From: a virus
Reading direction: 5' to 3' (one strand)
Virus record (IMG/VR): IMGVR_UViG_3300026445_000027
Location: 64,001-128,000 of that record
DNA length: 64,000 nucleotides
Below are positions 44,030 through 59,660 of this stretch, one piece after another (within the stretch, counting starts at the first letter, position 1; every line of letters starts with the position of its first letter). The position numbers were made by a program, and so were the translations under genes. Under the pieces are notes generated by a model. It did no database searches. It saw nothing but the letters and a program-made list of their open reading frames with translations, and was not told the origin of the DNA.

Positions 44030-44041
44030 AAAGTTGTTTAA

Positions 44042-44083
44042 TATAACCTACCCTAGCCCCGTCAAGGGCTAGGGTAGGTTATA
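44042..44083. terminator. 18-bp hairpin between convergent genes
   Basis: tataacctaccctagccc-cgtcaa-gggctagggtaggttata. Confidence 0.8.
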
Positions 44084-44091
44084 CCAATTAT

Positions 44092-44295
44092 TCATGCTGC
44101 TACCTTCACAACAGTGCTCAGAGCATTGATCTTTGCAGTCAACTTGTTCATCTCTTTGCACAGCAACCGGTACTCTTTATCCAAGCATACACCTGGACCT
44201 TCTTCCCGGAACCAAGCACTACGTTTAGCATTCAGTGCTTCGCGTTCTTTGATCAGGTTAGCAACAGTGTTTACTTCAAAGTCGAAAATGGACAT
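44092..44295 (-). CDS. Small early protein
   Basis: 67 aa, AGGAG RBS, own promoter-like motif at 44356-44372. Confidence 0.65.
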   Translation of the reverse strand: MSIFDFEVNTVANLIKEREALNAKRSAWFREEGPGVCLDKEYRLLCKEMNKLTAKINALSTVVKVAA

Positions 44296-44390
44296 GGTGA
44301 ACTCCTAGGGTGTTAGTGTAGTGAACCAAATGGTTTACTGACCTTATACACCCTAGTTATATAGACCCAAGACTCCCTAGAAGTTAAACC

Positions 44391-44729
44391 CTAGTAAGTT
44401 CCATCCGACCGGGCCGAACGCTTGTCCTCGAGCATACTCCAATAACGTTCTGGAGTTACCACAATAACTGCACCTAATTTACCGTTTATGAGTTTGAGGA
44501 ATTCCTCGATGTCCTCTTCTCTCTTAAAGTAAAGTTGGTGATCTTGATCACATTCGTAGTACTCCAAGTAAGTTTCCTTGGTTACCTCAAAACCGTATTC
44601 AAGCTTCTCTGCGGAGGGATCAAGAAAATATTCGTTGAGGGCGTCTTCATAATTGAAAGCGCCTTCAGCAGCGAACTCTAGTCCAGACCCCTTATGTTTG
44701 TAGTACGCCAGCGATGGATCAATGTTCAT
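44391..44729 (-). CDS. Accessory acidic protein
   Basis: ATG 44729 overlapping the polymerase stop region; AT-richer than neighbours. Confidence 0.6.
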   Translation of the reverse strand: MNIDPSLAYYKHKGSGLEFAAEGAFNYEDALNEYFLDPSAEKLEYGFEVTKETYLEYYECDQDHQLYFKREEDIEEFLKLINGKLGAVIVVTPERYWSMLEDKRSARSDGTY

Positions 44730-46824
44730 CGGACACCAGTCGTGTAGCTTTGCTGTTAAGGAAGTACAATCCGAGCGACTCAAGGATTGCGTAAATGGAT
44801 TTAAAGTTCTGCTGGATCAACAGACGCGAGTCCACGATAGGTAGTAGCTCTTTCGGTATGCCGCCCATCTCATCGATCATGTCTACTGGGATATAAACCG
44901 ATGTCAACTTAGGACGGGTTTCGATGTAAGCATGGAAGTTCTCTCCCCACACTTTGTCTTCTACCGAATCGAAATACTGTCGCATCTTAGACTTGTTGTG
45001 CAACGCCAAGTTGACCTTGTAAGCCCGGTATGGCAGTTCTGGTGCTTTGCCGTACTTAGGCGCAAACACACTCTCCCACAACTCGTGGTAGTAGTAGATG
45101 CTCGACTCTGGGTTAGAGTAAGCATTCTCAGCTTTGATACCGTTCTTAGTCAGCCAGGTGTAACCACCCTCGTCAATATCTTGGAACAGGGCACGTTCAA
45201 TGTCAGCGATCTCAGCCAACAGTTCAGCAGCATCCAACTGCTTCTTGTTGTAGATAGCATCGAGCACTTTACGCATAAGCGTGTTGGTGAACTCACGTAC
45301 CTTAAGTGCGATCTTAACCCCACGCAAGTGCACGCCTTTGAGCTCTAACTTAGGTTTGGGGTGCAAGATACCTTCCAGCATCAACTGCATTGCATAGTAG
45401 TGCTTGGACATGGAGGTCGTCACGTACGAACTGAACAAGTACTCGTTTTTCATGTTCAATCGGTACATGTACCGATTAGACACGTTCATGTTCTTACTGA
45501 GACGTGCGTGCTGGTCTACTGCGATGCAACGGATGAAATACGTCAGTGCGGCGTTGAAGCAGATACCACCCTGCTCGTCTTCTACGTAGTCGTCGATAAT
45601 CATGTCTACCGAGTAGATCATCGAGTCAGTGTCAGACGTCAGTACGTTCTCACGCACCAGCTCTTTCGCACTGAACACACCACTTGGTGGAATGTCTGCA
45701 CGGAAGAATGCGTTAATGAATGTACTCCACTTCTCTTCCAACGACAAGTGGTGGGTGTTGAGGAACGTCATCTGCTTGCTGTCGGGTTTCTTACCCAACT
45801 TGGTAATACAGAGGATCTCGTAGTCCGAGTTAGCCGGCTTGACACCAGTAGACGGATCGTAGTCCTCTGGCATCTCTGGCAGAGCACACCAATCGTTGAA
45901 GAACCGTTGCATCAGTTCCCGGTTGGTAGTGTACAGACCACGCAAGTCCATGGTGCACAGCAGGATGGTCAGCTCCAGTGGGCTCAGACCTTCCAAGAAC
46001 AACTGGATAGCACCCAAACGAGTCGGGTTCTTCCAGTAGTAACGAGCGCAACGACGAACCATGTCCATGACTTGGTCGACTGTCGCATAATTCATTGAGT
46101 ACTCGTTGATCACACGATGGATCAACTTACGGTCAGCAAACGCCAAAGTACTGAGGAACAGTTCCATTGTTGCGTCGAAGCTAACCAACAAACGGTTACC
46201 GGTAATCAGACGCTCGTTCAGCAAGTTAGCGGTCGAGGTTACAGTCCGGCAAGTACTGGTCAGAGTAGTGTGACCAGATTTGTTGTACAGCGGAGTACCA
46301 GACGAAGACATACCACCCGACTGGGCGTTGTTGAAAATCTTCAGTGCGTTCTGGATCTCGTCGAATGCTTTTGCTGCTTCTTGGTCGTTAACGCCAAGTG
46401 CTTCTTTTTTCTTACCCTTGTACAGACGACGGAATTCAATAAAGGTGTCTGTACCAATGGCGTTTACCGATTGTTCATCATCGGTGTGCTTGTACGCTAC
46501 AAAGGACGGGCTGAGGATCCAGTTATTATGTTCTACTGTCTGGAAGAACTCACTTGCTGGCATGACCGTCGGAACACGATCACCATACTTATTCTTTTTG
46601 AATACACCGAACTTGACTTCCTTGAAGCCGTTCTCGTTCGGGATAAAGACTTTCTCACATAACTCGAGTACTACGTTGTAATCGTACCCGTAAAGCACGC
46701 TAAGGTACATCGCAGCCTGAATGTGATACGACTTGATGATATCACGATTAGGCTTGTACTGCTCAGCCATGAAGGGGTTCTTCACTTCCTTGGCTGGTTT
46801 TAGGTTAGTTACTTGAGCAGTCAT
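44719..46824 (-). CDS. Family-B DNA polymerase palm/thumb subunit (gp50-like)
   Basis: Motif B KIFNNAQSG, motif C SDTDS, KHY, LKGV. Confidence 0.85.
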   Translation of the reverse strand: MTAQVTNLKPAKEVKNPFMAEQYKPNRDIIKSYHIQAAMYLSVLYGYDYNVVLELCEKVFIPNENGFKEVKFGVFKKNKYGDRVPTVMPASEFFQTVEHNNWILSPSFVAYKHTDDEQSVNAIGTDTFIEFRRLYKGKKKEALGVNDQEAAKAFDEIQNALKIFNNAQSGGMSSSGTPLYNKSGHTTLTSTCRTVTSTANLLNERLITGNRLLVSFDATMELFLSTLAFADRKLIHRVINEYSMNYATVDQVMDMVRRCARYYWKNPTRLGAIQLFLEGLSPLELTILLCTMDLRGLYTTNRELMQRFFNDWCALPEMPEDYDPSTGVKPANSDYEILCITKLGKKPDSKQMTFLNTHHLSLEEKWSTFINAFFRADIPPSGVFSAKELVRENVLTSDTDSMIYSVDMIIDDYVEDEQGGICFNAALTYFIRCIAVDQHARLSKNMNVSNRYMYRLNMKNEYLFSSYVTTSMSKHYYAMQLMLEGILHPKPKLELKGVHLRGVKIALKVREFTNTLMRKVLDAIYNKKQLDAAELLAEIADIERALFQDIDEGGYTWLTKNGIKAENAYSNPESSIYYYHELWESVFAPKYGKAPELPYRAYKVNLALHNKSKMRQYFDSVEDKVWGENFHAYIETRPKLTSVYIPVDMIDEMGGIPKELLPIVDSRLLIQQNFKSIYAILESLGLYFLNSKATRLVSDEH

Positions 46825-46860
46825 AAGCGACCTGTTTATGCAATCTAAAAATTAAAGACA

Positions 46861-46912
46861 CAAAAAATAAAAAGGTGGCACCAAGTCCCCTAACTTAATA
46901 GGAGACTTGGTG
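46861..46912 (-). terminator. Intrinsic terminator
   Basis: Hairpin at 46879-46912 plus T-tract on the minus strand. Confidence 0.7.
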
Positions 46913-46921
46913 TTAACTTAA

Positions 46922-47335
46922 CTACTCGTTGGTAAACTTGTTGCTGGTGTAGTTGGCCCCCAGGCTGGTCATGAAGGTCTTCAATGGGGCTTCCCAGGAC
47001 TCTTGCCAGTTGGTGATGTTCACCACGTTGCGCATGGACTGCACGAACTGGAAGGTGGCATCCTTGATCCAAGGAATACCAATCACCTCAGGACGACCAT
47101 CGGCATTGGCCACTACGATGTAACCGTAAGCGGTTGGGTCGTCGATGTTGTTGACTTTGTTCTGGAAATAAGGGTAAAGCATGCGATGCTTCACATTCAA
47201 TTCCGGATCCAGTGAGCGAGCGACGTTGTAGGTTAACTCACCGTCTACCCGCACACCTTGTTTGCCATCACCGATTAAACCGTTGCGCTCGAACTGGAAA
47301 CTTACTACGTCTCCCTTTTTGGGATTGATTGCCAT
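46922..47335 (-). CDS. Conserved small beta-barrel protein (gp49-like)
   Basis: 137 aa, GGAGG RBS. Confidence 0.65.
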   Translation of the reverse strand: MAINPKKGDVVSFQFERNGLIGDGKQGVRVDGELTYNVARSLDPELNVKHRMLYPYFQNKVNNIDDPTAYGYIVVANADGRPEVIGIPWIKDATFQFVQSMRNVVNITNWQESWEAPLKTFMTSLGANYTSNKFTNE

Positions 47336-47655
47336 GGTGTCCTCCGTTGGACCACAATTAACACTAGTGGTATCATCAAAGGATGGCCATCGAAGGTTAC
47401 AACCCGTCCGGGGGTAGACGTGACTACGTAATCAACTACGCTTTCGTCTTCCAGGTCCTCAATCATAATGTCAATCAAACACTGGTCTGCCGCAGTGTCT
47501 GGGTCGTCGCAGGTCATCATTAATTCGACTTCCCGCGCCAGGTAGCTTTGCAGATTATCAAACTCAAAGAACGTTTGATCGTCCGCTACTTCTGGTAATG
47601 ACGCCAGGTAATTGAGCAGCGCATCGTAATCAATGTCTAGGATACGCTTGTACAT
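47305..47655 (-). CDS. Small acidic protein
   Basis: 116 aa, operonic. Confidence 0.6.
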   Translation of the reverse strand: MYKRILDIDYDALLNYLASLPEVADDQTFFEFDNLQSYLAREVELMMTCDDPDTAADQCLIDIMIEDLEDESVVDYVVTSTPGRVVTFDGHPLMIPLVLIVVQRRTPWQSIPKRET

Positions 47656-47660
47656 GAGAA

Positions 47661-47984
47661 CTATTCCAAGTAGTAGAAAGTAAACACCACCGTCTTGCCA
47701 TTAACGGTGAAGTTCTCCAAGTATACGCTGGTATGATCCGTTACTGCTGCCTGGATAGACTCCATGGTGCGGAAGAAGTCTGTTTGCAGGATTTGTTGGC
47801 ACTCAGGGATCGGGTGGCTAAAGCCCTGGGTATTAGTCGGGATCATGTTCATCAGGGTAATGTCTACACCCTGGATCGAGAACAGGTTCTTGTACGCACC
47901 GAGCATTTCGTGGACGTCGGTGTTAGGTGGCAGTTGCACCACGTAGGTAAAGACCTGCTTTTGTTTTGCTTGCTCAGTCATCAA
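47661..47984 (-). CDS. Small protein
   Basis: 107 aa, operonic. Confidence 0.6.
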   Translation of the reverse strand: MMTEQAKQKQVFTYVVQLPPNTDVHEMLGAYKNLFSIQGVDITLMNMIPTNTQGFSHPIPECQQILQTDFFRTMESIQAAVTDHTSVYLENFTVNGKTVVFTFYYLE

Positions 47985-48306
47985 AAAGCTCCAGATAAAT
48001 TACGTGATCTTTAATGCTGAAAGACGAAAGGGTTGCGTCTTTGATAGCACTATGTACCAGAATACCAATTTGTACCAAGTGCGGGATTACTTCCAGCAGT
48101 AGGAGCTGGAACACCGCTGGATCTAGTTTCAGCAACTCGATGGTATCTTTGGTCAGGTCTTCTTGTATGTCTGGCTCGTTTGCCAACCAGATCTGCACCA
48201 GGAAGTTTAACAGGGTGTCGATCTCGGCGACACCCAAACCATGGTTGGTGAAAATGTCTTTTACCATCCCCAGAGGAACGGTTACTACTTTAGTCTTGGG
48301 TTCCAA
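47974..48306 (-). CDS. Small protein
   Basis: 110 aa, TTG start with GGAGGAG RBS. Confidence 0.6.
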   Translation of the reverse strand: MEPKTKVVTVPLGMVKDIFTNHGLGVAEIDTLLNFLVQIWLANEPDIQEDLTKDTIELLKLDPAVFQLLLLEVIPHLVQIGILVHSAIKDATLSSFSIKDHVIYLELFDD

Positions 48307-48757
48307 AGCAAAACTCCTCCAATGGTGATAGCTCGGATGGTATTAAAAAATCTCGTTCATCTATTGCTACCAAGATGTTCATATTGGGCATTAGCTTATA
48401 GCCGCACTTATAATCCAGCACAGACTTAGGTGTTAGATCAATTACCTGTCGATAGATGTGTGCGGCACCATCCTGGATGATATCTTTAATGTCATCCTCT
48501 AACAGGTTCTTGCGACAGATAATCTGGTCGTAGTGCTGTTCGTCAAACCGCACCCCACCAGGGTAACCTTCAAATGCAGCTTCGATGCTTGCTTCCCACA
48601 AACCTTTGGCTAGATCAGGCCAGCGTTTAGGTGGTAGGTTACCCACGATAATTCTGGATGTTTCTTCGCTGATCTTTTCGTACAAACTCTGCGCGTCGAT
48701 TTGATGAAAGCGGAGGGATTGACTGAGCCCTAGCACCATCAGATTTATTGAACTCAT
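48290..48757 (-). CDS. Small protein
   Basis: 155 aa; overlaps the upstream ORF by about 100 nt, start uncertain. Confidence 0.55.
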   Translation of the reverse strand: MSSINLMVLGLSQSLRFHQIDAQSLYEKISEETSRIIVGNLPPKRWPDLAKGLWEASIEAAFEGYPGGVRFDEQHYDQIICRKNLLEDDIKDIIQDGAAHIYRQVIDLTPKSVLDYKCGYKLMPNMNILVAIDERDFLIPSELSPLEEFCFGTQD

Positions 48758-49196
48758 TGATATCGTCCATACTTGGTGTGTCAGTTACCACATCCATGAT
48801 ATCTTCTTCTTCCCGCACTGGAGGAGTGATGTTCCACCCTAGTCGCTCTGCGGTAGCTTCCAGATCCATCACGATAACGGCTGTAGTATATACCACGCCG
48901 ATTACCGAGTAATCCACTTTAACCACCAATCGTGGATCCCAGCCATTACCACGAATCATGCGCTGGATCATTGCTACATACGACGAGAACACTTTATCTG
49001 GTACGGACATACCATAAGTGTCAGCAAAGTCTTCGATATCTTCGGCGATTTTGTTTTTACGCTTACCGCTAGATTCGTTAATGTATTCCACTGCAGCCGT
49101 TACTAACGCTCTGGCAATCTCCAGTCTGACCATCAAGGTAGTGTCGGCTTCCAAGATGAAGTCATTGGCTAATGCCATTATGTCGATCTTAACCAC
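48639..49196 (-). CDS. Hypothetical protein
   Basis: 185 aa, GAGG RBS. Confidence 0.6.
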   Translation of the reverse strand: MVKIDIMALANDFILEADTTLMVRLEIARALVTAAVEYINESSGKRKNKIAEDIEDFADTYGMSVPDKVFSSYVAMIQRMIRGNGWDPRLVVKVDYSVIGVVYTTAVIVMDLEATAERLGWNITPPVREEEDIMDVVTDTPSMDDINEFNKSDGARAQSIPPLSSNRRAEFVRKDQRRNIQNYRG

Positions 49197-49208
49197 AGGG
49201 TACCTCGG

Positions 49209-49505
49209 TTAATATTCCAGTGTTATTAATAGAAAAGCGTTGGCTTTACCATAGGCGCTAATATTGACGTAAGCATCACGAGGTACACCCGCTATCTTTT
49301 CCAATATCCCTTCCCGTAGCCCCTCGAAGTCATGCCCATGCATGCGATGGTAAATACGTTGCTCGTTAAATTCAGTAAACCCTTCATCCATCAAAACGGA
49401 AATAACGTCTGTAACGTCTATTTTGCGTTCTAAGAGCTTTTTGCCGTCGCCGATAGGACGGCCAAGGGTAAACCGTTCAAGGTTAATAGAGAAGCTTCTA
49501 GACAC
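49209..49505 (-). CDS. Small protein
   Basis: 98 aa, GTG start. Confidence 0.6.
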   Translation of the reverse strand: MSRSFSINLERFTLGRPIGDGKKLLERKIDVTDVISVLMDEGFTEFNEQRIYHRMHGHDFEGLREGILEKIAGVPRDAYVNISAYGKANAFLLITLEY

Positions 49506-49573
49506 CTTTACGACCCCTCTCGTTAAACATAGTATCGCATATATATGGTCAACCAGTTAAAAACAACTATAAC

Positions 49574-49607
49574 CCTAAGGGTAGGAGCATTAGCTCCTAC
49601 CCTTAGG
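49574..49607. terminator. 15-bp hairpin after phuZ
   Basis: cctaagggtaggagc-atta-gctcctacccttagg. Confidence 0.75.
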
Positions 49608-49619
49608 TTACATCATAGC

Positions 49620-50615
49620 TTACAGCAAGACGCCGTTGGAATCAGCACCGACGGACATGTCTTTCTGTTGTACGTAGACGCCCTGGTTGGTGGACTTGAC
49701 CTTGGTCAGTTTTTCCAGTTGTTGCTCCAGGTCGGCTACGGATTCACCGTGGTCCAGCAGCATGTGCAGCTGGGTGGTGTCGGCTGGGGTTTGGATGCCC
49801 TTGCCGAAGATGCCGGTGGAACGGATCACAGTGCCGGAGAAAGCAGCAGTGATGTTCTCGGACTTGTCGAACAGGCTGACGGTAGCTACCGGGATTGGGC
49901 CCTTGTAGTTTTCCGGGTTGTCGTAGAAGCTGATGCGCGACAGTGCTGGTGGAACGCCGTAGTGCTTGGAGTAGTCCAGCACGTTGAGCAGGTCTTGGAA
50001 GTCTTGCTCTTCGTTGTCACCGTTGGCGAACAGCGAGAACAGCGAGATCTTCTGAACGACGTCGCGGTCGACTTGGCCGCGGGTCTTACCTGGCTCGTTG
50101 CGGAACTCCATGTAGTTGATCGGAGCGTTGAGCTGGTTCGGTTGGGTTTGAATCGCCATCGACTGCAGAGTCTTGATGGAGTTTTCCATTTCGACCTGGG
50201 AGGTGTGGTCGGTGATGATCGCCAGTACTGCCGAGTGGCCGTTCTGTTTCAGCCAGCGGATCACCAGGGTAGCCAGCAGGGCACCAGAACCACCAGCGCC
50301 GGAGCAGGCAACGATGTTGAACACGCCTGGGGTGTACTTGTTCATGGTGCGGTCAACGAACGGTACAGCCTCGGCGTAGTTGGTAGCTTTGACCTTACCG
50401 GAACCGTTGGCGAGCTTCTTCGGATCACCGCTCAGTGGGACGCGTTCCAGCGGGATGCCCAGTTCTTCTGGCAGGCGGTTGTTACCGGAGGCGTCGAGTG
50501 CCAGGTAAGTTGCCTTGGCCACCTTGTCCGAGTAGGTGCTGGCTTTCAACAGCTTAGCGATGTTGATACCGGCGCCGCCGCAGACGATGATGTTCAGCTC
50601 TGGTTTAGTCGACAT
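49620..50615 (-). CDS. phuZ: PhuZ phage tubulin
   Basis: CGGAGINI, GSGK, SGAGGSG tubulin signature, acidic/hydrophobic C-terminal tail. Confidence 0.9.
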   Translation of the reverse strand: MSTKPELNIIVCGGAGINIAKLLKASTYSDKVAKATYLALDASGNNRLPEELGIPLERVPLSGDPKKLANGSGKVKATNYAEAVPFVDRTMNKYTPGVFNIVACSGAGGSGALLATLVIRWLKQNGHSAVLAIITDHTSQVEMENSIKTLQSMAIQTQPNQLNAPINYMEFRNEPGKTRGQVDRDVVQKISLFSLFANGDNEEQDFQDLLNVLDYSKHYGVPPALSRISFYDNPENYKGPIPVATVSLFDKSENITAAFSGTVIRSTGIFGKGIQTPADTTQLHMLLDHGESVADLEQQLEKLTKVKSTNQGVYVQQKDMSVGADSNGVLL

Positions 50616-50690
50616 AAATTACTCTCTTTACCAAGTGGAAGTGTATTGCGAAATCATTTATGTAAAAGATCTGTAGATCCATACACGTAG

Positions 50691-50708
50691 GTAATATAGG
50701 CTTGTAAA
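50691..50708 (-). promoter_or_regulatory. Early promoter of phuZ
   Basis: TTTACAAGCCTATATTAC, with an exact TATATTAC core. Confidence 0.65.
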
Positions 50709-50899
50709 TTTATTACCCTACATAAAAAGGTTATCCAGTATAAATGCAAAAAAGAAAAGCATTACCTACCAGTACCTAAACCACATGGGCAAGGACTGGT
50801 AGGCTAAGCTTAACTACACTGGGATGCTATCAACTAACTAGGTCGAACCCTACAACGACCAGGTATGTGATTGAGCAATACAATATAAAGTGCAGTTAC

Positions 50900-51225
50900 A
50901 AAAAATAAAGTATAACCCCACCCAATACCCCTAGACCAGGCGACAGTGTCGGCTAGGATCAGGGCATTGAGCAGGGGGAGGTTTTCTTTGGTTGCCTCAA
51001 CAGCACAACCCAACCAGCGAATAACTAGGCAGACGATTACTGGTTGTTGCCTTAGGACCTCCTAACCTTTGGCAGGGGCAGGGGCTACAGCATGGGTCGA
51101 AGATACAAAGGAAGAGTGACGTACCAATTGAGAGGCACACCGGCCAGCAAACCTGACAACGGGTACATCACTCTGACTAGGCAAGCGAGGGCAAGCTTAG
51201 TCTACACGGCCGCTAGGTCCATGTT
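50900..51225 (-). ncRNA. Putative multi-hairpin RNA 3' of tRNA-Gln, ending in a terminator
   Basis: No credible ORF; 13-bp stem AGAGTGATGTACC/GGTACGTCACTCT and others; terminal hairpin plus TTTATTTTTT. Confidence 0.45.
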
Positions 51226-51302
51226 TGGAAGAGGTAGATGGATTCGAACCATCGCATGACAGGATCAAAACCTGTTGCCTTACCGGGCTTGGCTATACCT
51301 CT
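51226..51302 (-). tRNA. tRNA-Gln(UUG)
   Basis: AGAGGTA/TACCTCT acceptor, ACAGG-TT TTG AT-CCTGT anticodon arm, TTCGAAT T-loop, encoded CCA. Confidence 0.9.
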
Positions 51303-51307
51303 GTAAC

Positions 51308-51402
51308 TGGGGTGGTCTACGGGCTTTTACCGTACGTCGTGAGTAACAGGCCGGCCTCCAGACCTGTAACGGCTTTCTCAAAGTGGACCTTGGGAGAACA
51401 CC
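51308..51402 (-). ncRNA. tRNA-flanked structured RNA, copy 1
   Basis: GGTGTTC/GACCACC closing stem plus CCA; TACGG-TAAAAGC-CCGTA arm. Confidence 0.55.
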
Positions 51403-51409
51403 TTTGATT

Positions 51410-51485
51410 TGGCTCCACGTCCTGGATTCGAACCAGGGACCAACAGATTAACAGTCTGCTGCTCTACCGACTGAGCTAACGTGGA
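51410..51485 (-). tRNA. tRNA-Asn(GUU)
   Basis: Canonical 76-nt cloverleaf, CT GTT AA loop, CCA. Confidence 0.95.
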
Positions 51486-51497
51486 AGAAATATTGAC

Positions 51498-51609
51498 GGT
51501 CCATTCGGGCTTTTACCGCACTTACTCATGAGCTTGCGGCTCAAGGGGGCCCGACCGTCCGGGCGCCGAGTGCTTTCTTTACCTACCAGGGTTCCTTGAT
51601 CAATGGTCC
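51498..51609 (-). ncRNA. Structured RNA, copy 2 of the same motif
   Basis: CCATT/AATGG closing stem; AGAAAGC and CGGTAAAAGCCCG shared with copy 1. Confidence 0.5.
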
Positions 51610-51626
51610 TTTGTAGGTTAATATGT

Positions 51627-51758
51627 TGTTCGACCTGGTAAGGGGGAAGGGAGGCTCGTTTTATCCCCCGACTTGGACCCATGCACCGTATGGACTACTG
51701 GGCGGCTCCTTTTAGTGTAGCCCGGCTGTACCCTACCGTCTTTCCACCAGATCAAACA
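51627..51758 (-). ncRNA. Putative structured RNA closed by a 13-bp helix
   Basis: TGTTTGATCTGGT/ACCAGGTCGAACA, with G-U pairs on the minus strand only. Confidence 0.45.
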
Positions 51759-51774
51759 AACTCTTGAATAAAGT

Positions 51775-52063
51775 ATCCGTTCGCCACACCCGCGCTATTC
51801 GCATTCCGCAAGCGCGTCATGTACTTACATTCCCGTTGCCACGGATCACAGCAAAGCGCTCAGCGCGCTAGCACGGGAAAGAGTCCCCCTAGGACTTCTT
51901 GTGTGGGCTGCTTGCGCAATGCAAAGCCGCCCTGCGAGCCAACCTGACCGTCGGCTAAATGCCAGCAACAAGGTACCGTGACGAACCTTGTTGCCGGACT
52001 AGGTGTGTGTTCCTCAGCGCCCTTCGCCGCCCACAGCGCACCACCTTTGCTGAGGGACACACA
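51775..52063 (-). ncRNA. Putative hairpin-array RNA
   Basis: Consecutive long stems, e.g. TGTGTGTcCCTCAGC/GCTGAGGaACACACA and CCGGCAACAAGGT/ACCTTGTTGCTGG. Confidence 0.45.
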
Positions 52064-52065
52064 TT

Positions 52066-52205
52066 TGGTAGAGAGTACACGATTCGAACGTGTGGGCCCA
52101 TAAGTGTCGTTGGCCGACACCCTGAGCACATCCGGTTTCATGTAAGGCCGCCCTAGGGTACGCCCACAATCCTCCAGACTCCTTAAACCACTCGGACAAC
52201 TCTCT
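52066..52205 (-). ncRNA. 140-nt enlarged tRNA-like RNA
   Basis: Perfect acceptor stem, D-arm, T-arm and A-CCA end; about 85-nt central domain with no canonical anticodon arm. Confidence 0.75.
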
Positions 52206-52229
52206 GTTAACTTTGTATAACATAGGAAA

Positions 52230-52375
52230 TCGGGACGGATCCCAGGGTAGAGCCCTGGTCTTACGCCGTAAGTATACGACGCATTCTGGATCGCCCTCCG
52301 TCTTGAGGCTTTTCTTCCCTAAGTCTAGCCAACCCTGACGGCCGTTAGGCTAGAGAGTTAACCGCGACCCGGGTT
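52230..52375 (-). ncRNA. Putative structured RNA between tRNA-Leu and the tRNA mimic
   Basis: Stems GGTCGC/GCGATC, TCTAGCC/GGCTAGA, GCGTCGTA/TACGGCGT, CCAGGG/CCCTGG. Confidence 0.4.
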
Positions 52376-52385
52376 TATCCAAATA

Positions 52386-52471
52386 TGGTGCGAGAGACGG
52401 GCATCGAACCCGTATGGCCAGAAGCCGACAGATTTTAAGTCTGTTGTGTATACCAATTCCACCACACTCGC
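52386..52471 (-). tRNA. tRNA-Leu(UAA)
   Basis: 86 nt, long variable arm, CT TAA AA loop, A73, CCA; one U-U mismatch in the acceptor stem. Confidence 0.9.
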
Positions 52472-52884
52472 AGAACACACCGTTACATATCATAACCATG
52501 TGTAGTAAAAAGATAAGAGGAACTGCTCCAGATTGCGACATCCTTCACAATCCCTCTGTCACCTAGACCTCGGTAATAGTGTTAACCCTTTTACCGCCGT
52601 AAAGGCCCGCCTCATCAAACTCTCTGCTCACAACCATGCTGCCGGCCAGATCGAAATCCCAGGGCGGTCAGCACAGAAGAAGCCCAGTAGGAAAGTTTGG
52701 GTGACTTAGTGGGTTTGACGTTCCACTCATAGGTTCTGCTCAGAAAAGCTTGTCATCGCGATTCGTTGCATCATACAACCACCGGCTCCACCTTAAGGTT
52801 CCGGCTGATCTCCTCAATGGGAGAATTCGGTTTAGGCGTTAACAATCACACCTGTTGTATATAATGGATTATTGCAGTAACAAA

Positions 52885-54075
52885 TTAACCAATCGGACTA
52901 CCAGTGGCAGACTGCATGCCGTTTACTGGGGCCTCACCAGCTCTTATGATCAAATCACCTTTGGACTCAACGATGTATTTATTGGCTTCTTTGAAAGTGT
53001 TGCCCAGGTAGTAGAGACCGGTGCCGTTATAGCCGATGCCGTAGTACTGCATTTCACACTGATCGCTAGACTCAGCAGAGATCATTGCTGTAAGGTGTTC
53101 TTGTGTGATAGCTGAACTAACGTTTTCAACATAGACGGGGTTGGCGTGCTCACTGAACTCAGCAATGAAATTATCATCTACCAAAACAACCAACGTCGAC
53201 AGGCCGTTGATAAGCCACTTGCGATGCGACAGGATGATTACTTTACCTGGGTAGCGATTACCAGTTTTGGTGATCTCTTCACGAATAAGGTTTTTGGTAG
53301 TTTTGCTGAAATTGCCGAAAACTGTGTTATAGTACTTGAGCTGATCCGGGTCATCCAGTACAAAAGGGCGTTTGACGCTAGGGATATCTTCTTCTGGTCC
53401 TGGGTCCCTTGCAGGCTTAGCATTAGCCTTAACATAGTTAGCTTCCAACATCGCCAGTTTGCTTTCTGGTATCAGCCCACCTTCGCGAAGCTCTTTGATC
53501 ATTTCCTTTGTGGCGTAAACGTTGTATTGCTGAATACGTTTGGCGGTTAACGAGTAAGCGTCGAAGAAGCTACCGTCCAGGTACGCACCAACGTTACCAT
53601 GGAAATTAGCCAGGATGGTACCGGAGTCGTACTCTTCTTCTGACTCAGCCACGCCACCTGGGGCCAGGCCTGCTTTAGCCAATGCTTCGCGCAGGTTAGG
53701 GTTAGCACTGAACATAATCTCACGTGCCATTGCCGCGATGCGAACTGGATCAGCGCCGTTCAGCAATGCGGGCAGATCAAAATCTACCGCACCTGGGTCG
53801 TCAGTGAGGGACTCTTTGTAGAGACCACCCATACCAGGGTACTCGAGGTCTTTCTCCGTGATCTTGGAGATAGTGTCCCCGGATGCGTTCATGATGTAAA
53901 CGTTGCCAGTGATCGGATAAGACCGATTCTTACCTGGCAGTGCATGTTGGATTACCAGCCCGTGGTTTCCATTTGGTGGGGTACCTAAGTTGACTTTGAT
54001 GTCAACCGGTTCTTCTACAACCAGCATGCGGAAACTCTTGTTGTCGCGGTCCATCATTTTGATAATGAGGTTCAT
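52885..54075 (-). CDS. Paralogue-array protein D (shared N-terminal domain)
   Basis: 396 aa; YPITGNVYIMNASGDTISKI. Confidence 0.7.
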   Translation of the reverse strand: MNLIIKMMDRDNKSFRMLVVEEPVDIKVNLGTPPNGNHGLVIQHALPGKNRSYPITGNVYIMNASGDTISKITEKDLEYPGMGGLYKESLTDDPGAVDFDLPALLNGADPVRIAAMAREIMFSANPNLREALAKAGLAPGGVAESEEEYDSGTILANFHGNVGAYLDGSFFDAYSLTAKRIQQYNVYATKEMIKELREGGLIPESKLAMLEANYVKANAKPARDPGPEEDIPSVKRPFVLDDPDQLKYYNTVFGNFSKTTKNLIREEITKTGNRYPGKVIILSHRKWLINGLSTLVVLVDDNFIAEFSEHANPVYVENVSSAITQEHLTAMISAESSDQCEMQYYGIGYNGTGLYYLGNTFKEANKYIVESKGDLIIRAGEAPVNGMQSATGSPIG

Positions 54076-54184
54076 GTAAACTACTCGTATTAGTTAGTGG
54101 TTTGTCTTACTGGTATTGCGTACGTGCTATGTTGCCTAAGGTCAGAGCCGCCCCTGACCTTAGTATTGTTTTGCTCGGTGTAAA

Positions 54185-55027
54185 TTAACTAAAGGTAACC
54201 GGTCGGATATCAAAAACTTCATTATCCAAATTGACGGTAAAGGCTTGTTTGTTAAGAAGGCTGTCGACTCTCCAGCCTTTGTCTGGAATATACTCAAGCC
54301 CATGGGACTCTTTTTCTTTGGCCGAAAGTGTATCGACTGTACGGCACCCTAGTTCAGTAACTACGATATGCGGCTGAGATGCACACTCCATGATACCTAA
54401 CGTTTTGTCAAAATGAGGATTTACATACAAAATCCATGGTCCATTAGGTGGCAAATCTATCATCCACTGGAACATTTGGGTAAATGGATCAACATGATCT
54501 GCGCTAATCAATTCGTTCAACTGATCAAGGCTGTTGCTAGGGAGGAATTGCAATTTACCAAGACCCAAGTAAAGAGTCGGTGAAGCTGCACGTAAATCTT
54601 TAGCACTATTCCAAACGGTAGCTGGATCACTCCCCTGGACACTCCCACCTGGATTCAATGGAGGGAACTGCTTAGGTATCTCACTACGCTTATTCAACTC
54701 TTCCCAGTCAATGGGGCGGTCGCCACTCATTGCTTCCCGGATAGGTTGTAATACTGCTTCGGTCTGTTCTTCAATACGCACCGGAGCCATAAGCTTTTCA
54801 TAGCTTACTTCACTTAACACCAACCCGTCAGGATTCATGATGGTGACGTCACCAGTTACCGGAATGACTTCAGAACGGAAGTCACCAAAACCCTCGACTA
54901 CCACCAATGGGGTATTAGACTTGGTCGCAGCAAATACAGTCACACGACCAGCATGTAGCACAGGGATCAAATGGAACCCGACTTTATCCGAGTGCATTAC
55001 CTTGATAATAGTTACTGGTTTAATCAT
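54185..55027 (-). CDS. Paralogue-array protein C
   Basis: 280 aa; IPVTGDVTIMNPDGLVLSEV. Confidence 0.7.
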   Translation of the reverse strand: MIKPVTIIKVMHSDKVGFHLIPVLHAGRVTVFAATKSNTPLVVVEGFGDFRSEVIPVTGDVTIMNPDGLVLSEVSYEKLMAPVRIEEQTEAVLQPIREAMSGDRPIDWEELNKRSEIPKQFPPLNPGGSVQGSDPATVWNSAKDLRAASPTLYLGLGKLQFLPSNSLDQLNELISADHVDPFTQMFQWMIDLPPNGPWILYVNPHFDKTLGIMECASQPHIVVTELGCRTVDTLSAKEKESHGLEYIPDKGWRVDSLLNKQAFTVNLDNEVFDIRPVTFS

Positions 55028-55641
55028 TACGCGGGCTCCCCTATCAATTTCTTAGCTTCTTCTTCAGACAAGTTAAATGTAAAACCGAAATTAGTTGCTA
55101 CTGGTTCGCGAGTCTTTCTGTTCACCCCGATAAATGAGTAAGCTAACTCCGGAGTGGATGGGTCGATAAAGATTTCGTGGTCATGGCACGATGCGTAGAA
55201 AGCCTGATCGGATCCTAGGAGCACTATTGGACTTTCTTCACCCATGTGCGGCTTGGGGATAAATACCGAAATAGGGTTTCCGCAGTAGAGGGTGGCGCGG
55301 GTTCTTACTTTCCAGATGCCATTTGTAGAGACAGTCAGTCGTTTTTCCAACAGCTCCATCCAGAACTCTTTGCTTCCTGGTGCGGTGGGAGTGGGAGGGT
55401 ACACCAGATCGGAAAGTTTCACTAACTGGATCAAGGCACCTGTGTGAGACTTGATCTCTACGTCACCACGCAGTTGGTAAACGGCGGTATTTTCCTCCAA
55501 CACCCCGTCTATTTCAACAACCCCTTTCTGGATAGTCAAGGTAGCATGACCTCGGCCAAACTTCATGACCTCTTGACTACCCACTTGGAGGACAGTACCT
55601 ACTGAACCATAGCTAGTAAACAACGTTACGATAAGACTCAT
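55027..55641 (-). CDS. Paralogue-array protein B
   Basis: 204 aa; YQLRGDVEIKSHTGALIQLV. Confidence 0.7.
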   Translation of the reverse strand: MSLIVTLFTSYGSVGTVLQVGSQEVMKFGRGHATLTIQKGVVEIDGVLEENTAVYQLRGDVEIKSHTGALIQLVKLSDLVYPPTPTAPGSKEFWMELLEKRLTVSTNGIWKVRTRATLYCGNPISVFIPKPHMGEESPIVLLGSDQAFYASCHDHEIFIDPSTPELAYSFIGVNRKTREPVATNFGFTFNLSEEEAKKLIGEPA

Positions 55642-55892
55642 GACGCGCCCTCTACACTATAGGCCGTGACAGTTTGGATTACTTCACCGTTTGCATTACA
55701 GATCTCCACTTCCCCATCAAAGCCGTAGGCGGTAATGCTGTTACTAGATCCATTAACTGAAGGGATACGTACATGTGGATCGGAATTGGTGTACCGACCG
55801 AATTCAATACGCTCGCCAACTTTAACCGTCAGTACGTTTTTCACAACGCCTTTGCTGTTCTTAACGATTACCAACATTGCCAACTGACTCAT
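55638..55892 (-). CDS. Paralogue-array protein A (domain only, 84 aa)
   Basis: Start reassigned to ATG 55892 (GGAG RBS); YGFDGEVEICNANGEVIQTV. Confidence 0.7.
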   Translation of the reverse strand: MSQLAMLVIVKNSKGVVKNVLTVKVGERIEFGRYTNSDPHVRIPSVNGSSNSITAYGFDGEVEICNANGEVIQTVTAYSVEGAS

Positions 55893-55924
55893 ACTTACTC
55901 CAATTATTAAAATGCGTGTATAAA

Positions 55925-55951
55925 CCCTACCTAGCTTATAGCTAGGTAGGG
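55925..55951. terminator. 12-bp hairpin after the protease gene
   Basis: ccctacctagct-tat-agctaggtaggg. Confidence 0.6.
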
Positions 55952-55957
55952 GTACCA

Positions 55958-56608
55958 TTAAACGGCTTCTACTACGATCGGGTCTTCGACTTCTGGCTTC
56001 GGATGGGTGGAAGCTTCACCAGGAGTAGTCTCCGGCTTAACCGCTTCATCCTTGGCGTCCTTCGGATCTTTGATCACCAGGTGGGCAGGCCGTACCGATT
56101 TCACTTCTGGTACTGGCGGGAACACGAATACGTCCACGTCACCACCGGACATCACATCCAGCTTACAGGCAGTTTTAACCGCCTTAGCCGCATTCTGCCC
56201 CACGCACATAGCAGCCAGTGCAAAACGGCTACCGCTACCGCTGGAGTATGGAACGTTTACCGGCAGCAGGAACTGCTCTTCACCACGCTTCTCTTTGTTG
56301 GCGTAGATGCTCCAGGCCAGTACCTCGTGGCGCTCAGTAATGAGGATCGCCTCGAAGTCCAGTTCCTCGTCGTGCGTTACCCGTGTACGGTAGTCGATAC
56401 CCTTACGCAGGTACTCCTTGATGTACTCGATGGCATGTGCCTGGCCACACACGCCGAATGCGATGATGCGTACGCCAGCTGCTTCCCAGTACTCGGTAGC
56501 TGCGTCTGGCTTGTGGATCTTCTTGAAGTTACCTGGCATGGCCATCCAGCCTTTAGTAGCCTGACCATCACTTGCCATCATTCCGTCGCTAACTGCGATA
56601 GTAGTCAT
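55958..56608 (-). CDS. HslV/proteasome-beta-like Ntn protease
   Basis: N-terminal (M)TTIA nucleophile, ASDGQAT, KKI, GSGSRFA, D..SGG. Confidence 0.8.
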   Translation of the reverse strand: MTTIAVSDGMMASDGQATKGWMAMPGNFKKIHKPDAATEYWEAAGVRIIAFGVCGQAHAIEYIKEYLRKGIDYRTRVTHDEELDFEAILITERHEVLAWSIYANKEKRGEEQFLLPVNVPYSSGSGSRFALAAMCVGQNAAKAVKTACKLDVMSGGDVDVFVFPPVPEVKSVRPAHLVIKDPKDAKDEAVKPETTPGEASTHPKPEVEDPIVVEAV

Positions 56609-56716
56609 TTACTATAAACCCCTTAGGTACCAAATAATGATCGTCTGCCTAACTAACCAGTAGTAAGCAATAACATAACACTCTAGCAAATAAATAATCC
56701 GGTGTTACTCATACTG

Positions 56717-56733
56717 GTAATGTAGGTTTAAGT
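56717..56733 (-). promoter_or_regulatory. Putative early promoter of the protease gene
   Basis: ACTTAAACCTACATTAC. Confidence 0.5.
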
Positions 56734-56779
56734 ATTTCTTAGGTAATGCAAATATAACCCTTACCCTACCCTCCCTAAG

Positions 56780-57030
56780 GAAGATAGAAGTATAATAATT
56801 AATATATATTTTTCTAATTTTTGACACATTCTATGTCTATTTAAATTTAGTAATATAGTAAAGGGGGCTGCGCCCCCTTTACTAGTCATCTATGCTAAAG
56901 CATAAAGGCTATGAGTCTCGTCATCTACTAACGTAGATTCCTCGGCCTAAGCATCCTCCCCGGTAAGGCTATTCACTCCGTTCCGTTCGCCGAAGGCTCA
57001 CTTCACTACGTTCATAACCTTACCACCCCT
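56780..57030. other. AT-rich tract plus hairpin cluster, candidate origin or ssDNA signal
   Basis: Very AT-rich 56790-56860 next to several hairpins with cGNAg loops. Confidence 0.35.
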
Positions 57031-57127
57031 CCTTCAAAAATCTGAAATGAGAAAGTGGCAATTAACATAACATACAAACCAGATAAAAATTAAGAGATGC
57101 TATAGACCTACTTAGAGGTAAACAGAC

Positions 57128-57976
57128 ATGAACGCGGTTCAATATGCAATCAATCGATTACACGGAAGTGACATCGATGAGTATTTGCTCAAGCTAGCCT
57201 TTGAGCAAAATCCAAATACCAACTGGTCAGGTAACTGGTACAACACTGTTAATGCCACTACGATAGACCAAGGGGTACTGGAGAAAGTAATCCACCGTAC
57301 GGTATTGCCAGCCTGTAATGCACGGGGTGGTAAGACTGAGTACATCGATATCTCTAGCAGCCGTATCCGTGATTTAGGTAATGGTTGTATTGAGGTCAAC
57401 GTGCCAGACATTATCACCGGTGGTCGGAAGATCATTAGTGTGGCTGAAGTCTACTTGGGTTCCATGACCTCTGCTTCTGGTATGCTGGGTATCGGTATCA
57501 ACGATAACGCACTGTGTGGCCAGGGTGCTATCAGTGACATGACGCAGTCGCTGTTGGACTCGATTACCCCTAGTCGTATGTTCCCGGTTACCTTTACCAA
57601 CATCCACATGACTGGTAACAACAGTTTCGTGATCTTTGGTATGAACTCCGGTACGTTCTCCATGTCAGCCAAAATGACCTTGGAGTACGATGAAGGGTTG
57701 TCCAGTATCAGCTCACGGCACCACGAGCTGTTTGCAGACCTCGTAGAGCTCGCTGTGAAGGCTTATATTTACCGTACCTGCCGTAGACCTACCAGTGACG
57801 CTGTAAAGCGCGCAGGGGTCGCCCTGGACGATATCAAAGACGATATCGCTAACTATCGCTCGGCATGGGATGACTATAAGGAAATGGTCAAGACCACTTG
57901 GACCAATGCCATGGCTTGGAGTGATCGTCTGACTGTACACGAGACTATCAAGTCGGCGATCCCTAGACGAATGTAA
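57128..57976 (+). CDS. Conserved protein, probably virion (neck-like, uncertain)
   Basis: 282 aa, GAGG RBS. Confidence 0.6.
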   Translation: MNAVQYAINRLHGSDIDEYLLKLAFEQNPNTNWSGNWYNTVNATTIDQGVLEKVIHRTVLPACNARGGKTEYIDISSSRIRDLGNGCIEVNVPDIITGGRKIISVAEVYLGSMTSASGMLGIGINDNALCGQGAISDMTQSLLDSITPSRMFPVTFTNIHMTGNNSFVIFGMNSGTFSMSAKMTLEYDEGLSSISSRHHELFADLVELAVKAYIYRTCRRPTSDAVKRAGVALDDIKDDIANYRSAWDDYKEMVKTTWTNAMAWSDRLTVHETIKSAIPRRM

Positions 57977-57985
57977 GGTAACCCT

Positions 57986-59311
57986 ATGACAGCTTTTGTC
58001 CCCTTCAGTTGGTTCGAGCCGCTATCGGAACACGGTATCGGTTGTATTGCTGGGATGGAGGAACTCTTTAGTGATATTAACTACAAGAGTGACCAAGCCA
58101 TCCTGGCCGTGTGTAACAAGTTTGGTGAGTACCTAGACATCACCCCACAATGGGCTATGTCACTGCGACGCTATGTTTATGGTTTCACCACCCGTACAGT
58201 GGGCATGGTCAACTATCTGGACTTCTTCGGTAGCCCTTACCTGGGACTCCAGAAAATTACCTTTACCACTGGGGACCGTAACTTATGGTTCAGCGAGATC
58301 TTCGACGTCGACGAAGAAGAACTCAAAGAGAACCTGCACGAAGTCAAGTCCATTCAGAAAGAGTGGAACGTAGTAGGGGATGTGTTCAACATGACCATCC
58401 CTTATCTGCTGTACCGCACGTACCACTCCAAGCTAGACCCCAAGACGAAACACCAAGCAATGGTGGATATCGTCTGCATGTATCACTACAAGTGCTTCAC
58501 CAGCATCATTCACAACGACTACCCTTACCAAGCACGTAAGGAAGTGGTCCTGGAAACCTACAATCGCTTGTCGAAGAAATACGACATCAAGCAGTACGGT
58601 AGCTGGCGTGCACTGATTGAAGCCCGAGCGAACTTCATCCTGGATCCCAAGACTGGCATCCACTTCGATGCGTTCACCAAAATGGACGACGATAAAAAGA
58701 TCGTCTACATGGTCGGGGATATCCAAAACCGGTTCCGCCGGGTAATCAACGATATCAACAAGGTATTCCACGAAGTAAAGAACAAGACCAACATCGTCTC
58801 CATTGAAGGAGCAAAGGTAAACCTCCAGGACGAGATTACCATCAAGTCGGTGTCCAAGGAAGTTACCCAGAACAACTTGTATATTGACCGGATCCTCACA
58901 GAGGAAACGTCGTTTTACAAGCCCGAGCTGGTTAACTATGCCTCCTCCGTTTTGGAGCACCCCAATACCGAGAAACTCGCTTACTTGGTACAGCAGTTAC
59001 CTGGGGCCTACAAGAACCCCAAAGACAAACATGCTAAGGTGTTTGTCGATGCCGTAATCGAACACATGTGGGAATACCTGCACTCGAACGGCATCAAGAA
59101 GACCAACGTGTCGGAAGTCCTTGTTAGACTGCGTGGTGCATATGGGGCACCCAAGTCCAACAACAACACCGTTAAGGTGGTACGCCAGGAAGGGGAAGAA
59201 GTCGTCCGTAAACTGACGGGTATCAAAACCCCGATGGCGGTACAATCCTTGCGTGCTGGACTCAGTCTGTACATCGTTATCCGAATCCTTTCCAAAGACC
59301 TCTACGACTAA
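57986..59311 (+). CDS. Conserved protein, probably a processed head protein
   Basis: 441 aa; N-terminal AGMEE motif. Confidence 0.6.
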   Translation: MTAFVPFSWFEPLSEHGIGCIAGMEELFSDINYKSDQAILAVCNKFGEYLDITPQWAMSLRRYVYGFTTRTVGMVNYLDFFGSPYLGLQKITFTTGDRNLWFSEIFDVDEEELKENLHEVKSIQKEWNVVGDVFNMTIPYLLYRTYHSKLDPKTKHQAMVDIVCMYHYKCFTSIIHNDYPYQARKEVVLETYNRLSKKYDIKQYGSWRALIEARANFILDPKTGIHFDAFTKMDDDKKIVYMVGDIQNRFRRVINDINKVFHEVKNKTNIVSIEGAKVNLQDEITIKSVSKEVTQNNLYIDRILTEETSFYKPELVNYASSVLEHPNTEKLAYLVQQLPGAYKNPKDKHAKVFVDAVIEHMWEYLHSNGIKKTNVSEVLVRLRGAYGAPKSNNNTVKVVRQEGEEVVRKLTGIKTPMAVQSLRAGLSLYIVIRILSKDLYD

Positions 59312-59320
59312 GGTAAGACC

Positions 59321-59614
59321 ATGACCATCGCCAACGCTAAAATCGAACGCTACAACGAAACCCACATCCTGGGTGTAGCGGAGTTGACCCACTCGAAAGG
59401 CACCGAAGAAGTGCGCTTTGTAGCACCGAAGCCAGTGGAAGGTTTCGACCCGCACGGCAGCCCAGAGCTCGATGCCAGTGCGCGTTATTTCTCCAGCCCA
59501 ATGATCGCGCATACCAACTTCGACGACTTGTCGAATAACGTAGTGCTCACCCCAGCGTTCATCGGTCGCGACCTGGGTGCCATGCAAGCCCATCTGGTCA
59601 AGAACTTTAAGTAA
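59321..59614 (+). CDS. Small hypothetical protein
   Basis: 97 aa, AAGGT RBS. Confidence 0.65.
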   Translation: MTIANAKIERYNETHILGVAELTHSKGTEEVRFVAPKPVEGFDPHGSPELDASARYFSSPMIAHTNFDDLSNNVVLTPAFIGRDLGAMQAHLVKNFK

Positions 59615-59621
59615 GCGATCA

Positions 59622-59656
59622 TATACCCTCCTGGCCGTCAAGGCCAGGAGGGTATA
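59622..59656. terminator. 15-bp hairpin between convergent genes
   Basis: tataccctcctggcc-gtcaa-ggccaggagggtata. Confidence 0.75.
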
Positions 59657-59660
59657 GCCC

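Follow-up and report, generated by a model that had tools for sequence, protein, structure and literature searches.

What lies in the gene-free DNA directly upstream of phuZ, the gene for tubulin, in a jumbo phage that forms a nucleus? We addressed this question in a window of 64,000 nucleotides (positions 64,001 to 128,000 of the IMG/VR virus record IMGVR_UViG_3300026445_000027), which PHROG and Pfam matches assign to such a phage, an uncultured one from soil. A stretch of about 2.2 kb, from 52884 to approximately 50690 and just upstream of phuZ, is free of genes, and an original prediction, made from the sequence alone, had correctly placed in it, at 50760-52860, an island in which structured non-coding RNAs (ncRNAs) are punctuated by transfer RNAs (tRNAs). 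The segments named below together span 50745-52888 and, like all island features in this text, lie on the minus strand. They comprise at least eight conserved folded modules without a match to described RNA families, and the island is quite probably a clade-conserved locus for structured ncRNAs, that is, a tRNA operon in which conserved structured RNAs form the spacers. The functions of the enigmatic RNAs of phage tRNA islands (T4 RNAC and RNAD, GOLLD, ROOL) have been open for decades. To these RNAs the present locus contributes, in a single place, six or more new families of structured RNA, each supported by covariation; one of them is a tRNA 'blinded' in its anticodon loop yet conserved throughout the clade.

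tRNA genes and coding potential

ARAGORN and Rfam agreed on three canonical tRNAs in the island, all above the RF00005 gathering threshold of 29 bits: a tRNA-Leu (UAA) with encoded CCA at 52386-52471 (54.2 bits), a tRNA-Asn (GUU) at 51410-51485 (72.2 bits) and a tRNA-Gln (UUG) at 51226-51302 (63.6 bits). Together they make up 239 nucleotides and are the sole tRNAs in the 142.8-kb record. The G+C content of the island is 0.52-0.59, against 0.43-0.47 in most of the flanking DNA, and the largest open reading frame (ORF) within the stretch encodes at most 93 amino acids.

The stretch was compared with 11 related contigs (L014 and L015-L024), which were found via their PhuZ homologues (58-95% identical). 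A gene-free gap of 1.6-2.6 kb lies directly upstream of phuZ in all 11, with an HNH endonuclease insertion in L023; apart from this insertion, the homologous gaps of 10 relatives were left empty by gene callers. Mismatches in pairwise alignments of four of the modules described below (M1, M2, M4 and M8) showed no periodicity of three bases (p 0.04-0.99), and indels in module alignments were mostly not multiples of three (9 of 10, 8 of 8 and 14 of 15, for example, and 41 of 44 in the M1 alignments, which likewise lack codon periodicity). As a control, phuZ from the same genome pairs gave a third-position excess with p from 1e-7 to 1e-21, and all its indels were multiples of three. The stretch is therefore non-coding. 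In stating that it holds no credible ORF, about 240 nucleotides of canonical tRNA and GC-rich DNA, the original prediction described it well.

Conserved modules and covarying structure

The tRNA sets differ among the relatives, from a single tRNA-Leu to six tRNAs, while the segments between them recur in a modular fashion. Even close relatives show gain and loss: L006, a contig 97-99% identical to the window, lacks exactly 51229-51407, which corresponds to module X2 plus tRNA-Gln, and L015, whose PhuZ is 95% identical, lacks M5, X1, tRNA-Asn and part of X2 (window positions 51332-51740). Units consisting of an X module and a tRNA thus behave as mobile cassettes. Genes for homing endonucleases of the HNH (and NUMOD4) type are present in the L023 island (3507-4292) and in the M5-carrying tRNA clusters of Psa21 and HPP-Temi (L002 3246-3812 and L005 1909-2316), and such enzymes possibly drive the turnover of cassettes. 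At the site where relatives carry tRNA-Asn, ARAGORN calls in L017 (4212-4288) a tRNA with a four-base anticodon (attg), implying an anticodon loop of 8 nucleotides; this tRNA could be of the frameshift type or defective.

Covariation was assessed against 500 shuffles per module and against structures whose pairing partners had been slid. The structures of M1, M2, M4 and M8a were derived by RNAalifold from the very alignments tested, and the cloverleaf of M3 was defined by hand. In all tested modules 92-97% of the alignment cells were paired, versus 26-58% with slid partners (29-48% for M1, M2, M4 and M8a), and in M1, M2, M3, M4, M5 and M8a no shuffle out of 500 came up to the real alignment in the share of paired cells, the count of compensatory pairs or the covariation score. 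In M1 (alignment A7, 7 sequences) 92.3% of cells were paired and 32 of 75 pairs were compensatory, against 5-11 after sliding; the corresponding values were 93.4%, 27 of 86 and 2-4 for M4 (A8, 5 sequences), 93.8%, 39 of 84 and 6-13 for M8a (A9, 8 sequences), and 93.2%, 15 of 38 and 2-6 for M2 (A10, 7 sequences). The M3 cloverleaf (A5) reached 96.7% paired cells, 26-51% when slid, with 13 of 25 pairs compensatory, and M5 (A11) reached 92.2%, with 11 of 21. Folding of single sequences discriminates both structure and strand poorly, with modest z-scores of -0.4 to -2.7 versus shuffles; it is by covariation, which the original prediction had made a touchstone of its proposal, that the discrete domains it described stand above chance, with compensatory changes in each tested module.

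The same alignments identify the strand. Cells with G.U outnumber those with A.C on the tRNA strand (72:11, 45:4, 92:10, 50:3 and 19:1), and consensus folds are stronger on this strand than on the opposite one (-69.0 vs -45.3, -85.7 vs -47.9 and -37.5 vs -21.4 kcal/mol). The earlier claims that G-U pairs favour the tRNA strand, and that tRNAs alternate with folded domains, both held: the three tRNAs lie among conserved structured modules on their own strand.

Four of the modules are large. M1 (52472-52888) is a structured leader module of about 417 nucleotides upstream of tRNA-Leu, which opens on an AT-rich block that is fully conserved, ATTATATACAAC, and closes with a conserved ATGATATGTAAC; it has homologues in L014, L015, L017, L018, L019 and L021 and, in part, in L016 and L022. 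M2 (52207-52385, about 180 nucleotides) has a closing helix (TTTGGAT/ATCCAGA), an inner hairpin that displays GUCAGGG and a conserved end, TATGTTATACAA, and is found in L015, L018, L020, L021, L022 and L023, irrespective of a preceding tRNA-Leu. M4 (51748-52061) is a multi-hairpin module of about 314 nucleotides containing a strongly conserved hairpin, AGCCGAC-GGUCAG-GUYGGCU, with homologues in L015, L016, L017 and L019 and parts in L014, L018, L021 and L024. M8a (50900-51225), a multi-helix module of about 325 nucleotides, is homologous in L014-L020, and its 3' end is an intrinsic terminator, T1, formed by a 16-bp hairpin and a U-run (approximately 50978-50900), whose helix has 7 compensatory pairs and a pairing rate of 99.2%. 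The short unit after T1, M8b (50745-50899), also aligns in L014-L020; an AT-rich block and a hairpin region with the conserved GUCGUUUUAGGGUUCGAC are followed in it by a second terminator, T2 (hairpin at approximately 50803-50764, U-run at 50758-50747). The stem of T2 differs between phages and still pairs, being CCUACCAGU/ACUGGUAGG in the window and CUGCCCAGU/ACUGGGCAG in L016. A hairpin motif, AGCC...GUCAGG(G)UU(G/U)GCU, occurs three times in the island, in M2 (52352-52324), in M4 (51957-51933, a copy that is nearly invariant across relatives) and in M8a (51160-51140), and may be a shared protein-binding or tertiary-contact motif.

Conserved AT-rich blocks, among them ATTATATACAAC, ATGATATGTAAC and TATGTTATACAA, lie at 52864-52853, 52497-52486, 52226-52215 and around 50890, that is, before M1, tRNA-Leu, M3 and M8b, and may be phage promoters. 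Together with the two intrinsic terminators they suggest several transcription units rather than the single polycistron of the original prediction. In phage 201phi2-1, tRNA-Leu is driven by a middle promoter (PMC11512511).

At gathering thresholds, Rfam models found only tRNAs in the window and the 11 relatives, so the modules match no Rfam family, and cmscan of 50600-53000 at E<=10 returned the tRNAs plus three hits at chance level. A transfer-messenger RNA (tmRNA) was likewise absent from the ARAGORN output at default settings, and the Rfam tmRNA hit scored 10.2 bits versus a threshold of 47, on the opposite strand; the 'permuted tmRNA' calls made by ARAGORN at an 80% threshold overlap real tRNAs and were discarded.

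M3, the X family and M5

M3 (52066-52205) is an RNA of 140 nucleotides with the shape of a tRNA-Ser. Its acceptor stem of 7 bp (AGAGAGU pairing with ACUCUCU) is followed by A73 and by a CCA that is encoded, as it is in the three canonical tRNAs, the D arm, UCC-GAGUGGUUUAA-GGA, is of class II, with a 3-bp stem and an 11-nucleotide loop, the T arm carries a UUCGAAU loop, the anticodon stem (UCUGG/CCGGA) is intact and the variable arm is long, up to 37 nucleotides in most members. The likeness to class II tRNA-Ser thus includes the acceptor, D, variable and T arms, the CCA and the triplet at the anticodon position, NGA, of the serine family, and both the cloverleaf order of the stems and their covariation, which extends to all of them, are those of a tRNA. 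The difference lies in the anticodon loop, which measures about 38 nucleotides instead of 7 and consists of WGGAU, a hairpin insert of about 30 nucleotides and variable sequence, and UGAAA; UGAAA is preceded by A, U or G depending on the relative, so that U33 is not conserved. This plan is common to the 10 relatives that carry M3 (10 of 10), and all stems and the insertion site are retained down to 58% PhuZ identity. Neither default ARAGORN nor RF00005 recognised M3, in the window or in any relative, and a pattern scan of IMG/VR found no carriers beyond this clade.

Could M3 be an interrupted but functional tRNA? This was rejected: the insert measures about 30 nucleotides where a group I intron would be expected to have more than 200, there is no Rfam intron hit, and removal of the hairpin restores no canonical loop in most relatives. 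A 'tRNA-His with intron' called by ARAGORN in its intron and low-threshold modes was unconvincing. Since the hairpin disrupts the anticodon loop, M3 is very probably unable to decode. Bacterial seryl-tRNA synthetase (SerRS) recognises the variable arm and the acceptor stem of its substrates, not the anticodon, and for this reason M3 might be processed and perhaps charged and yet be non-decoding.

The X modules are always found directly 5' of a tRNA or of M3. The window has two, X1 (M6, 51486-51630) before tRNA-Asn and the shorter X2 (M7, 51303-51409) before tRNA-Gln, which share a 16-nucleotide direct repeat, and further copies in nine relatives complete the family (relatives of X2 are found in L019 at 4183-4285 and in L024 at 3506-3576). 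X1 begins with hairpin P1 (ACCUAC/GUAGGU), which has a GAUCAAGG loop, continues with AAAGAAAGCAC and variable hairpins, and closes with a 3' hairpin whose 7-nucleotide loop is UAAAAGC, followed by ..CAAUAUUUC before the tRNA; X2 has in common with it GAGAAAGC, a long hairpin and the CGGUAAAAGCCCG hairpin. Across the family, a 5' hairpin (ACYUAC/GUARGU or CUUAYCAG/CUGGUAAG) presents GAUCAAGG and is followed by AAAGAAARCAC, variable hairpins, a 5-bp hairpin with a T-loop-like 7-nucleotide loop, UAAAAGY, and a 3' end GAC...CAAGAUUU, after which comes the tRNA or M3. Compensatory change is seen in both P1 and the 3' hairpin, with 9 compensatory pairs among the 19 predicted; an acceptor-like closing stem is not kept in L018b, L019b and L024b and was abandoned, leaving P1 and the 3' UAAAAGY hairpin as the supported helices. 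X1 is the best conserved of the spacers (94% identity to L014, 86% to L018). The unit of X1 and tRNA-Asn is 89-94% identical to L014, far above the 77% of phuZ, which suggests cassette exchange or strong constraint.

M5 (51622-51747) is built of two tandem hairpins within a core of about 105 nucleotides (51745-51640). It is a tandem duplication in which each unit contains GGGUACA(A)G, a helix of 6-7 bp, a loop AAAA(G/C)GAGCCNCC and the return of the helix, and every sequence variant observed in helix A and helix B pairs. In addition, each hairpin's loop is able to pair with the GGG flank of its partner unit. One pseudoknot pair (15-128 in A11) is AU in 8 cases, GC in 5 and GU in 3, with no mismatch, and in the Vibrio copy a one-base deletion in flank 2 is matched by one in loop A; M5 is thus probably a double pseudoknot, on thin evidence. 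The linker varies, with an extra hairpin in L034, L008 and L033, as is typical of structured RNA.

M5 is also widely distributed. Apart from tRNA hits, blastn of the island against phage genomes gave a single match of 100 nucleotides, in phages D6, Psa21 and pEa_SNUABM_9, which corresponds to M5, and further searches added Pseudomonas phage HPP-Temi and Vibrio phage 1.210.O. The covariance model R1, which scores 120.7 bits at the window M5, and pattern scans gave 18 distinct copies in all, always one per genome, including those of the clade member L018, of IMG/VR phages of about 315 kb and of a phage contig binned with a Xylophilus metagenome-assembled genome (MAG). M5 adjoins tRNAs in Pseudomonas phages D6, Psa21 and HPP-Temi, in Erwinia phage pEa_SNUABM_9 and in the 48-kb Vibrio phage 1.210.O; in L033 it lies away from any tRNA, upstream of a deoxynucleoside monophosphate (dNMP) kinase gene. 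Its loops are invariant across phages of Pseudomonas, Erwinia and Vibrio hosts. The module moves among phage groups that are unrelated, for the most part within clusters of tRNA genes. A search of 150 further bacterial genomes from the family to which the Xylophilus MAG belongs gave no copy, nor did blastn find one in phage PA5oct, so that M5 has no link to the four ncRNAs of the latter. A leader peptide, or a Shine-Dalgarno sequence plus ATG, was rejected as an explanation of M5 on account of a 1-nucleotide indel that shifts the frame, of ACGAG in place of AGGAG in the Vibrio copy and of compensation at the RNA level. As to self-cleaving ribozymes and riboswitches, M5 has no Rfam match at E<=10, and no relevant class of either is known to be missing from Rfam 15.

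Possible products, rival explanations and genomic setting

How might such a locus work? Transcription would start at phage promoters, possibly several, and end at T1 and T2. At the tRNAs and at the tRNA-shaped M3, RNase P together with 3' processing would split the transcript into tRNAs and free structured RNAs, and M3 would mimic a tRNA without decoding. That the RNAs are co-transcribed, processed and stable, and that any of them acts in trans, is inferred. Release of the modules as separate stable RNAs has, in our estimation, slightly less than an even chance of being correct. The original prediction, which let RNase P and 3' trimming free each domain and read the locus as a polycistronic arsenal of decoy or regulatory RNAs, is thus supported in part.

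Several observations count against a locus of conserved structured RNAs. The paired percentages are inflated to some degree, because RNAalifold drew the structures from the alignments on which they were tested, and the compensatory events are not independent, because each alignment holds 5-10 related sequences. Identity of the modules to their relatives (0.55-0.96) is close to that of phuZ at third codon positions (0.54-0.84), so alignability alone is no proof of selection. No single module is essential, as the gains and losses in L006 and L015 indicate, and the AT-rich blocks could be promoters at the DNA level rather than features of an RNA. Despite the inflation, the gap between the observed covariation and the controls is large.

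The rival that survives best accepts the structures and denies them independent products: the spacers would be cis-acting parts of the precursor (leaders, trailers or insulators) that guide its folding, shield it against RNases of the host or set the timing of its processing before being degraded. We regard this as fairly unlikely. It fits the position of X, always directly 5' of a tRNA or M3 and ending in a conserved ..CAAGAUUU leader, as well as M1, which stops just before tRNA-Leu, and it has a parallel in the small RNAs (sRNAs) derived from 5' untranslated regions (UTRs) that lie immediately upstream of a tRNA in phages 201phi2-1 and PAK_P3 (PMC11512511). These sRNAs, which are also a precedent for the locus of structured RNAs in being RNA species beside phage tRNAs, were compared by position, which is that of the X module; they are defined by transcript ends, whereas X is defined by conservation alone. 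The same reading accommodates poorly the retention of M1, M2, M4 and M8 where the adjacent tRNA is different or missing (in L021, M1 abuts M2), the location of M5 in L033, apart from any tRNA, the tRNA-like ends that M3 itself possesses, and some 1.9 kb of elaborate covarying structure, far beyond what a leader needs.

Some or all of the modules might instead be parts of a single giant ornate RNA similar to GOLLD and ROOL, which would have the tRNAs in its linkers and might assemble into an RNA-only complex; we consider this improbable. GOLLD and ROOL are borne by phages or prophages, often near tRNA islands, and tRNAs sometimes lie in the GOLLD linker (bioRxiv 10.1101/2024.12.08.627333); the island resembles them in being phage-borne, in being interleaved with tRNAs and in its elaborate covarying structure, about 1.9 kb of which surrounds the tRNAs. 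But no GOLLD or ROOL model matches even at E<=10, from one relative to the next, modules appear, disappear and change order independently of each other, in the manner of separable cassettes and not of one conserved RNA, the internal T1 and the conserved AT-rich blocks suggest separate units, and there is no supported long-range helix between modules. The other precedent, T4 RNAC and RNAD, are small, stable ncRNAs among phage tRNA genes, co-transcribed and of unknown biological role (PMC3014915). The likeness here is the tRNA-gene setting, the only ground on which they were compared; the modules of the island are more numerous and much larger (about 1.9 kb), and their host is a jumbo phage with chimallin and PhuZ, not a T4-like one. 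Both precedents had been invoked by the original prediction, and aptly.

Decaying tRNA genes and neutral junk, left by a turnover of tRNA cassettes driven by homing endonucleases, would account for the fast changes in tRNA content, for the HNH genes of the L023 island and of the Psa21 and HPP-Temi tRNA clusters, for the tRNA-derived look of M3 and of the T-loop-like hairpin of X, and for a module identity close to that of phuZ third positions. It is largely refuted by compensatory changes, which keep 92-97% of pairs against 26-58% when slid, and by the persistence of the M3 stems and insertion site down to 58% PhuZ identity and of the invariant M5 loops across phages of three host genera; we judge it very improbable. 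Finally, small proteins overlooked by ORF thresholds, to which ORFs of 30-93 amino acids on both strands and coding sequences annotated over M5 in pEa_SNUABM_9 and HPP-Temi might point, can be practically dismissed given the lack of three-base periodicity, the mostly non-triplet indels, a 1-nucleotide insertion in pEa_SNUABM_9 that shifts the frame over invariant M5 nucleotides, and helix changes that are compensatory in the RNA but alter the putative peptide.

Taking the island, then, as a tRNA operon with structured RNA spacers, what could the RNAs be for? A toolkit directed at the tRNA and translation machinery of the host, with M3 as mimic, X and M5 as decoys or scaffolds, large modules that form particles and M5 as a new widespread class of double-pseudoknot RNAs, is an unlikely proposal. 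If true, it would soak up or misdirect tRNA-targeting defence nucleases, enzymes that modify or aminoacylate tRNAs, or ribosomes; M3 would be a chargeable, non-decoding mimic of tRNA-Ser, X and M5 would serve as decoys or scaffolds of the tRNA cluster, at least one large module would assemble into RNA-only particles similar to those of ROOL and GOLLD, and M5 would represent a new class of phage RNA, widespread and folded as a double pseudoknot. That the modules act as decoys or against defences is, as such, at best no more probable. The role of tRNA-island RNAs becomes directly testable through M5, because it is present in the cultured and genetically tractable phages Psa21, D6, HPP-Temi, pEa_SNUABM_9 and 1.210.O. 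The fixed site beside phuZ in nucleus-forming phages also raises the question of how such RNAs could be produced within the phage nucleus and then be processed by host enzymes that reside in the cytoplasm.

The island is bordered by phuZ (49620-50615, minus strand) and, on the other side, by an ORF of 396 amino acids (52885-54075, minus). PHROG and Pfam matches also identified the nuclear shell protein, chimallin (40637-42697, minus), and a divergent family B DNA polymerase (44719-46824, minus). The closest cultured PhuZ proteins are those of Shewanella phage FishSpeaker (41% identity) and Erwinia phage RisingSun (39%), in which neither a homologous island nor tRNAs were found upstream of phuZ. 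RisingSun has at this place (L036 3168-4495) a gene-poor stretch of about 1.3 kb, free of tRNAs and of detectable similarity to the island, with two small 'hypothetical' coding sequences on the opposite strand, a GTATGTTATAC block and a terminator-like hairpin, which may be an analogous ncRNA region.

The IMG/VR record, of 142.8 kb, is about 60% complete, and the full phage genome is likely to measure about 243 kb, since a 243-kb contig in public runs represents the same genome. Sixteen soil 'metatranscriptome' runs contain the stretch, as single contigs of 138-243 kb that span the whole phage genome at even depth (word depth 27-198 in runs X6, X9, X11 and X15, checked over 44001-62000). Such whole-genome contigs in RNA libraries represent carry-over of phage DNA or a highly active phage, and because the genome is present in this form the libraries are uninformative on expression of the island. 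An ORF of 381 amino acids without family match lies antisense to phuZ (49545-50690, plus strand); phuZ is locally GC-rich (0.56-0.59 versus about 0.45 in its surroundings), and for this reason the antisense frame is probably open by chance. The ORF of the terminase large subunit (59661-62930, minus strand) has 1089 amino acids, of which PHROG terminase matches span residues 9-333 only; possible explanations for the remainder are an insertion, an intein and a fusion.

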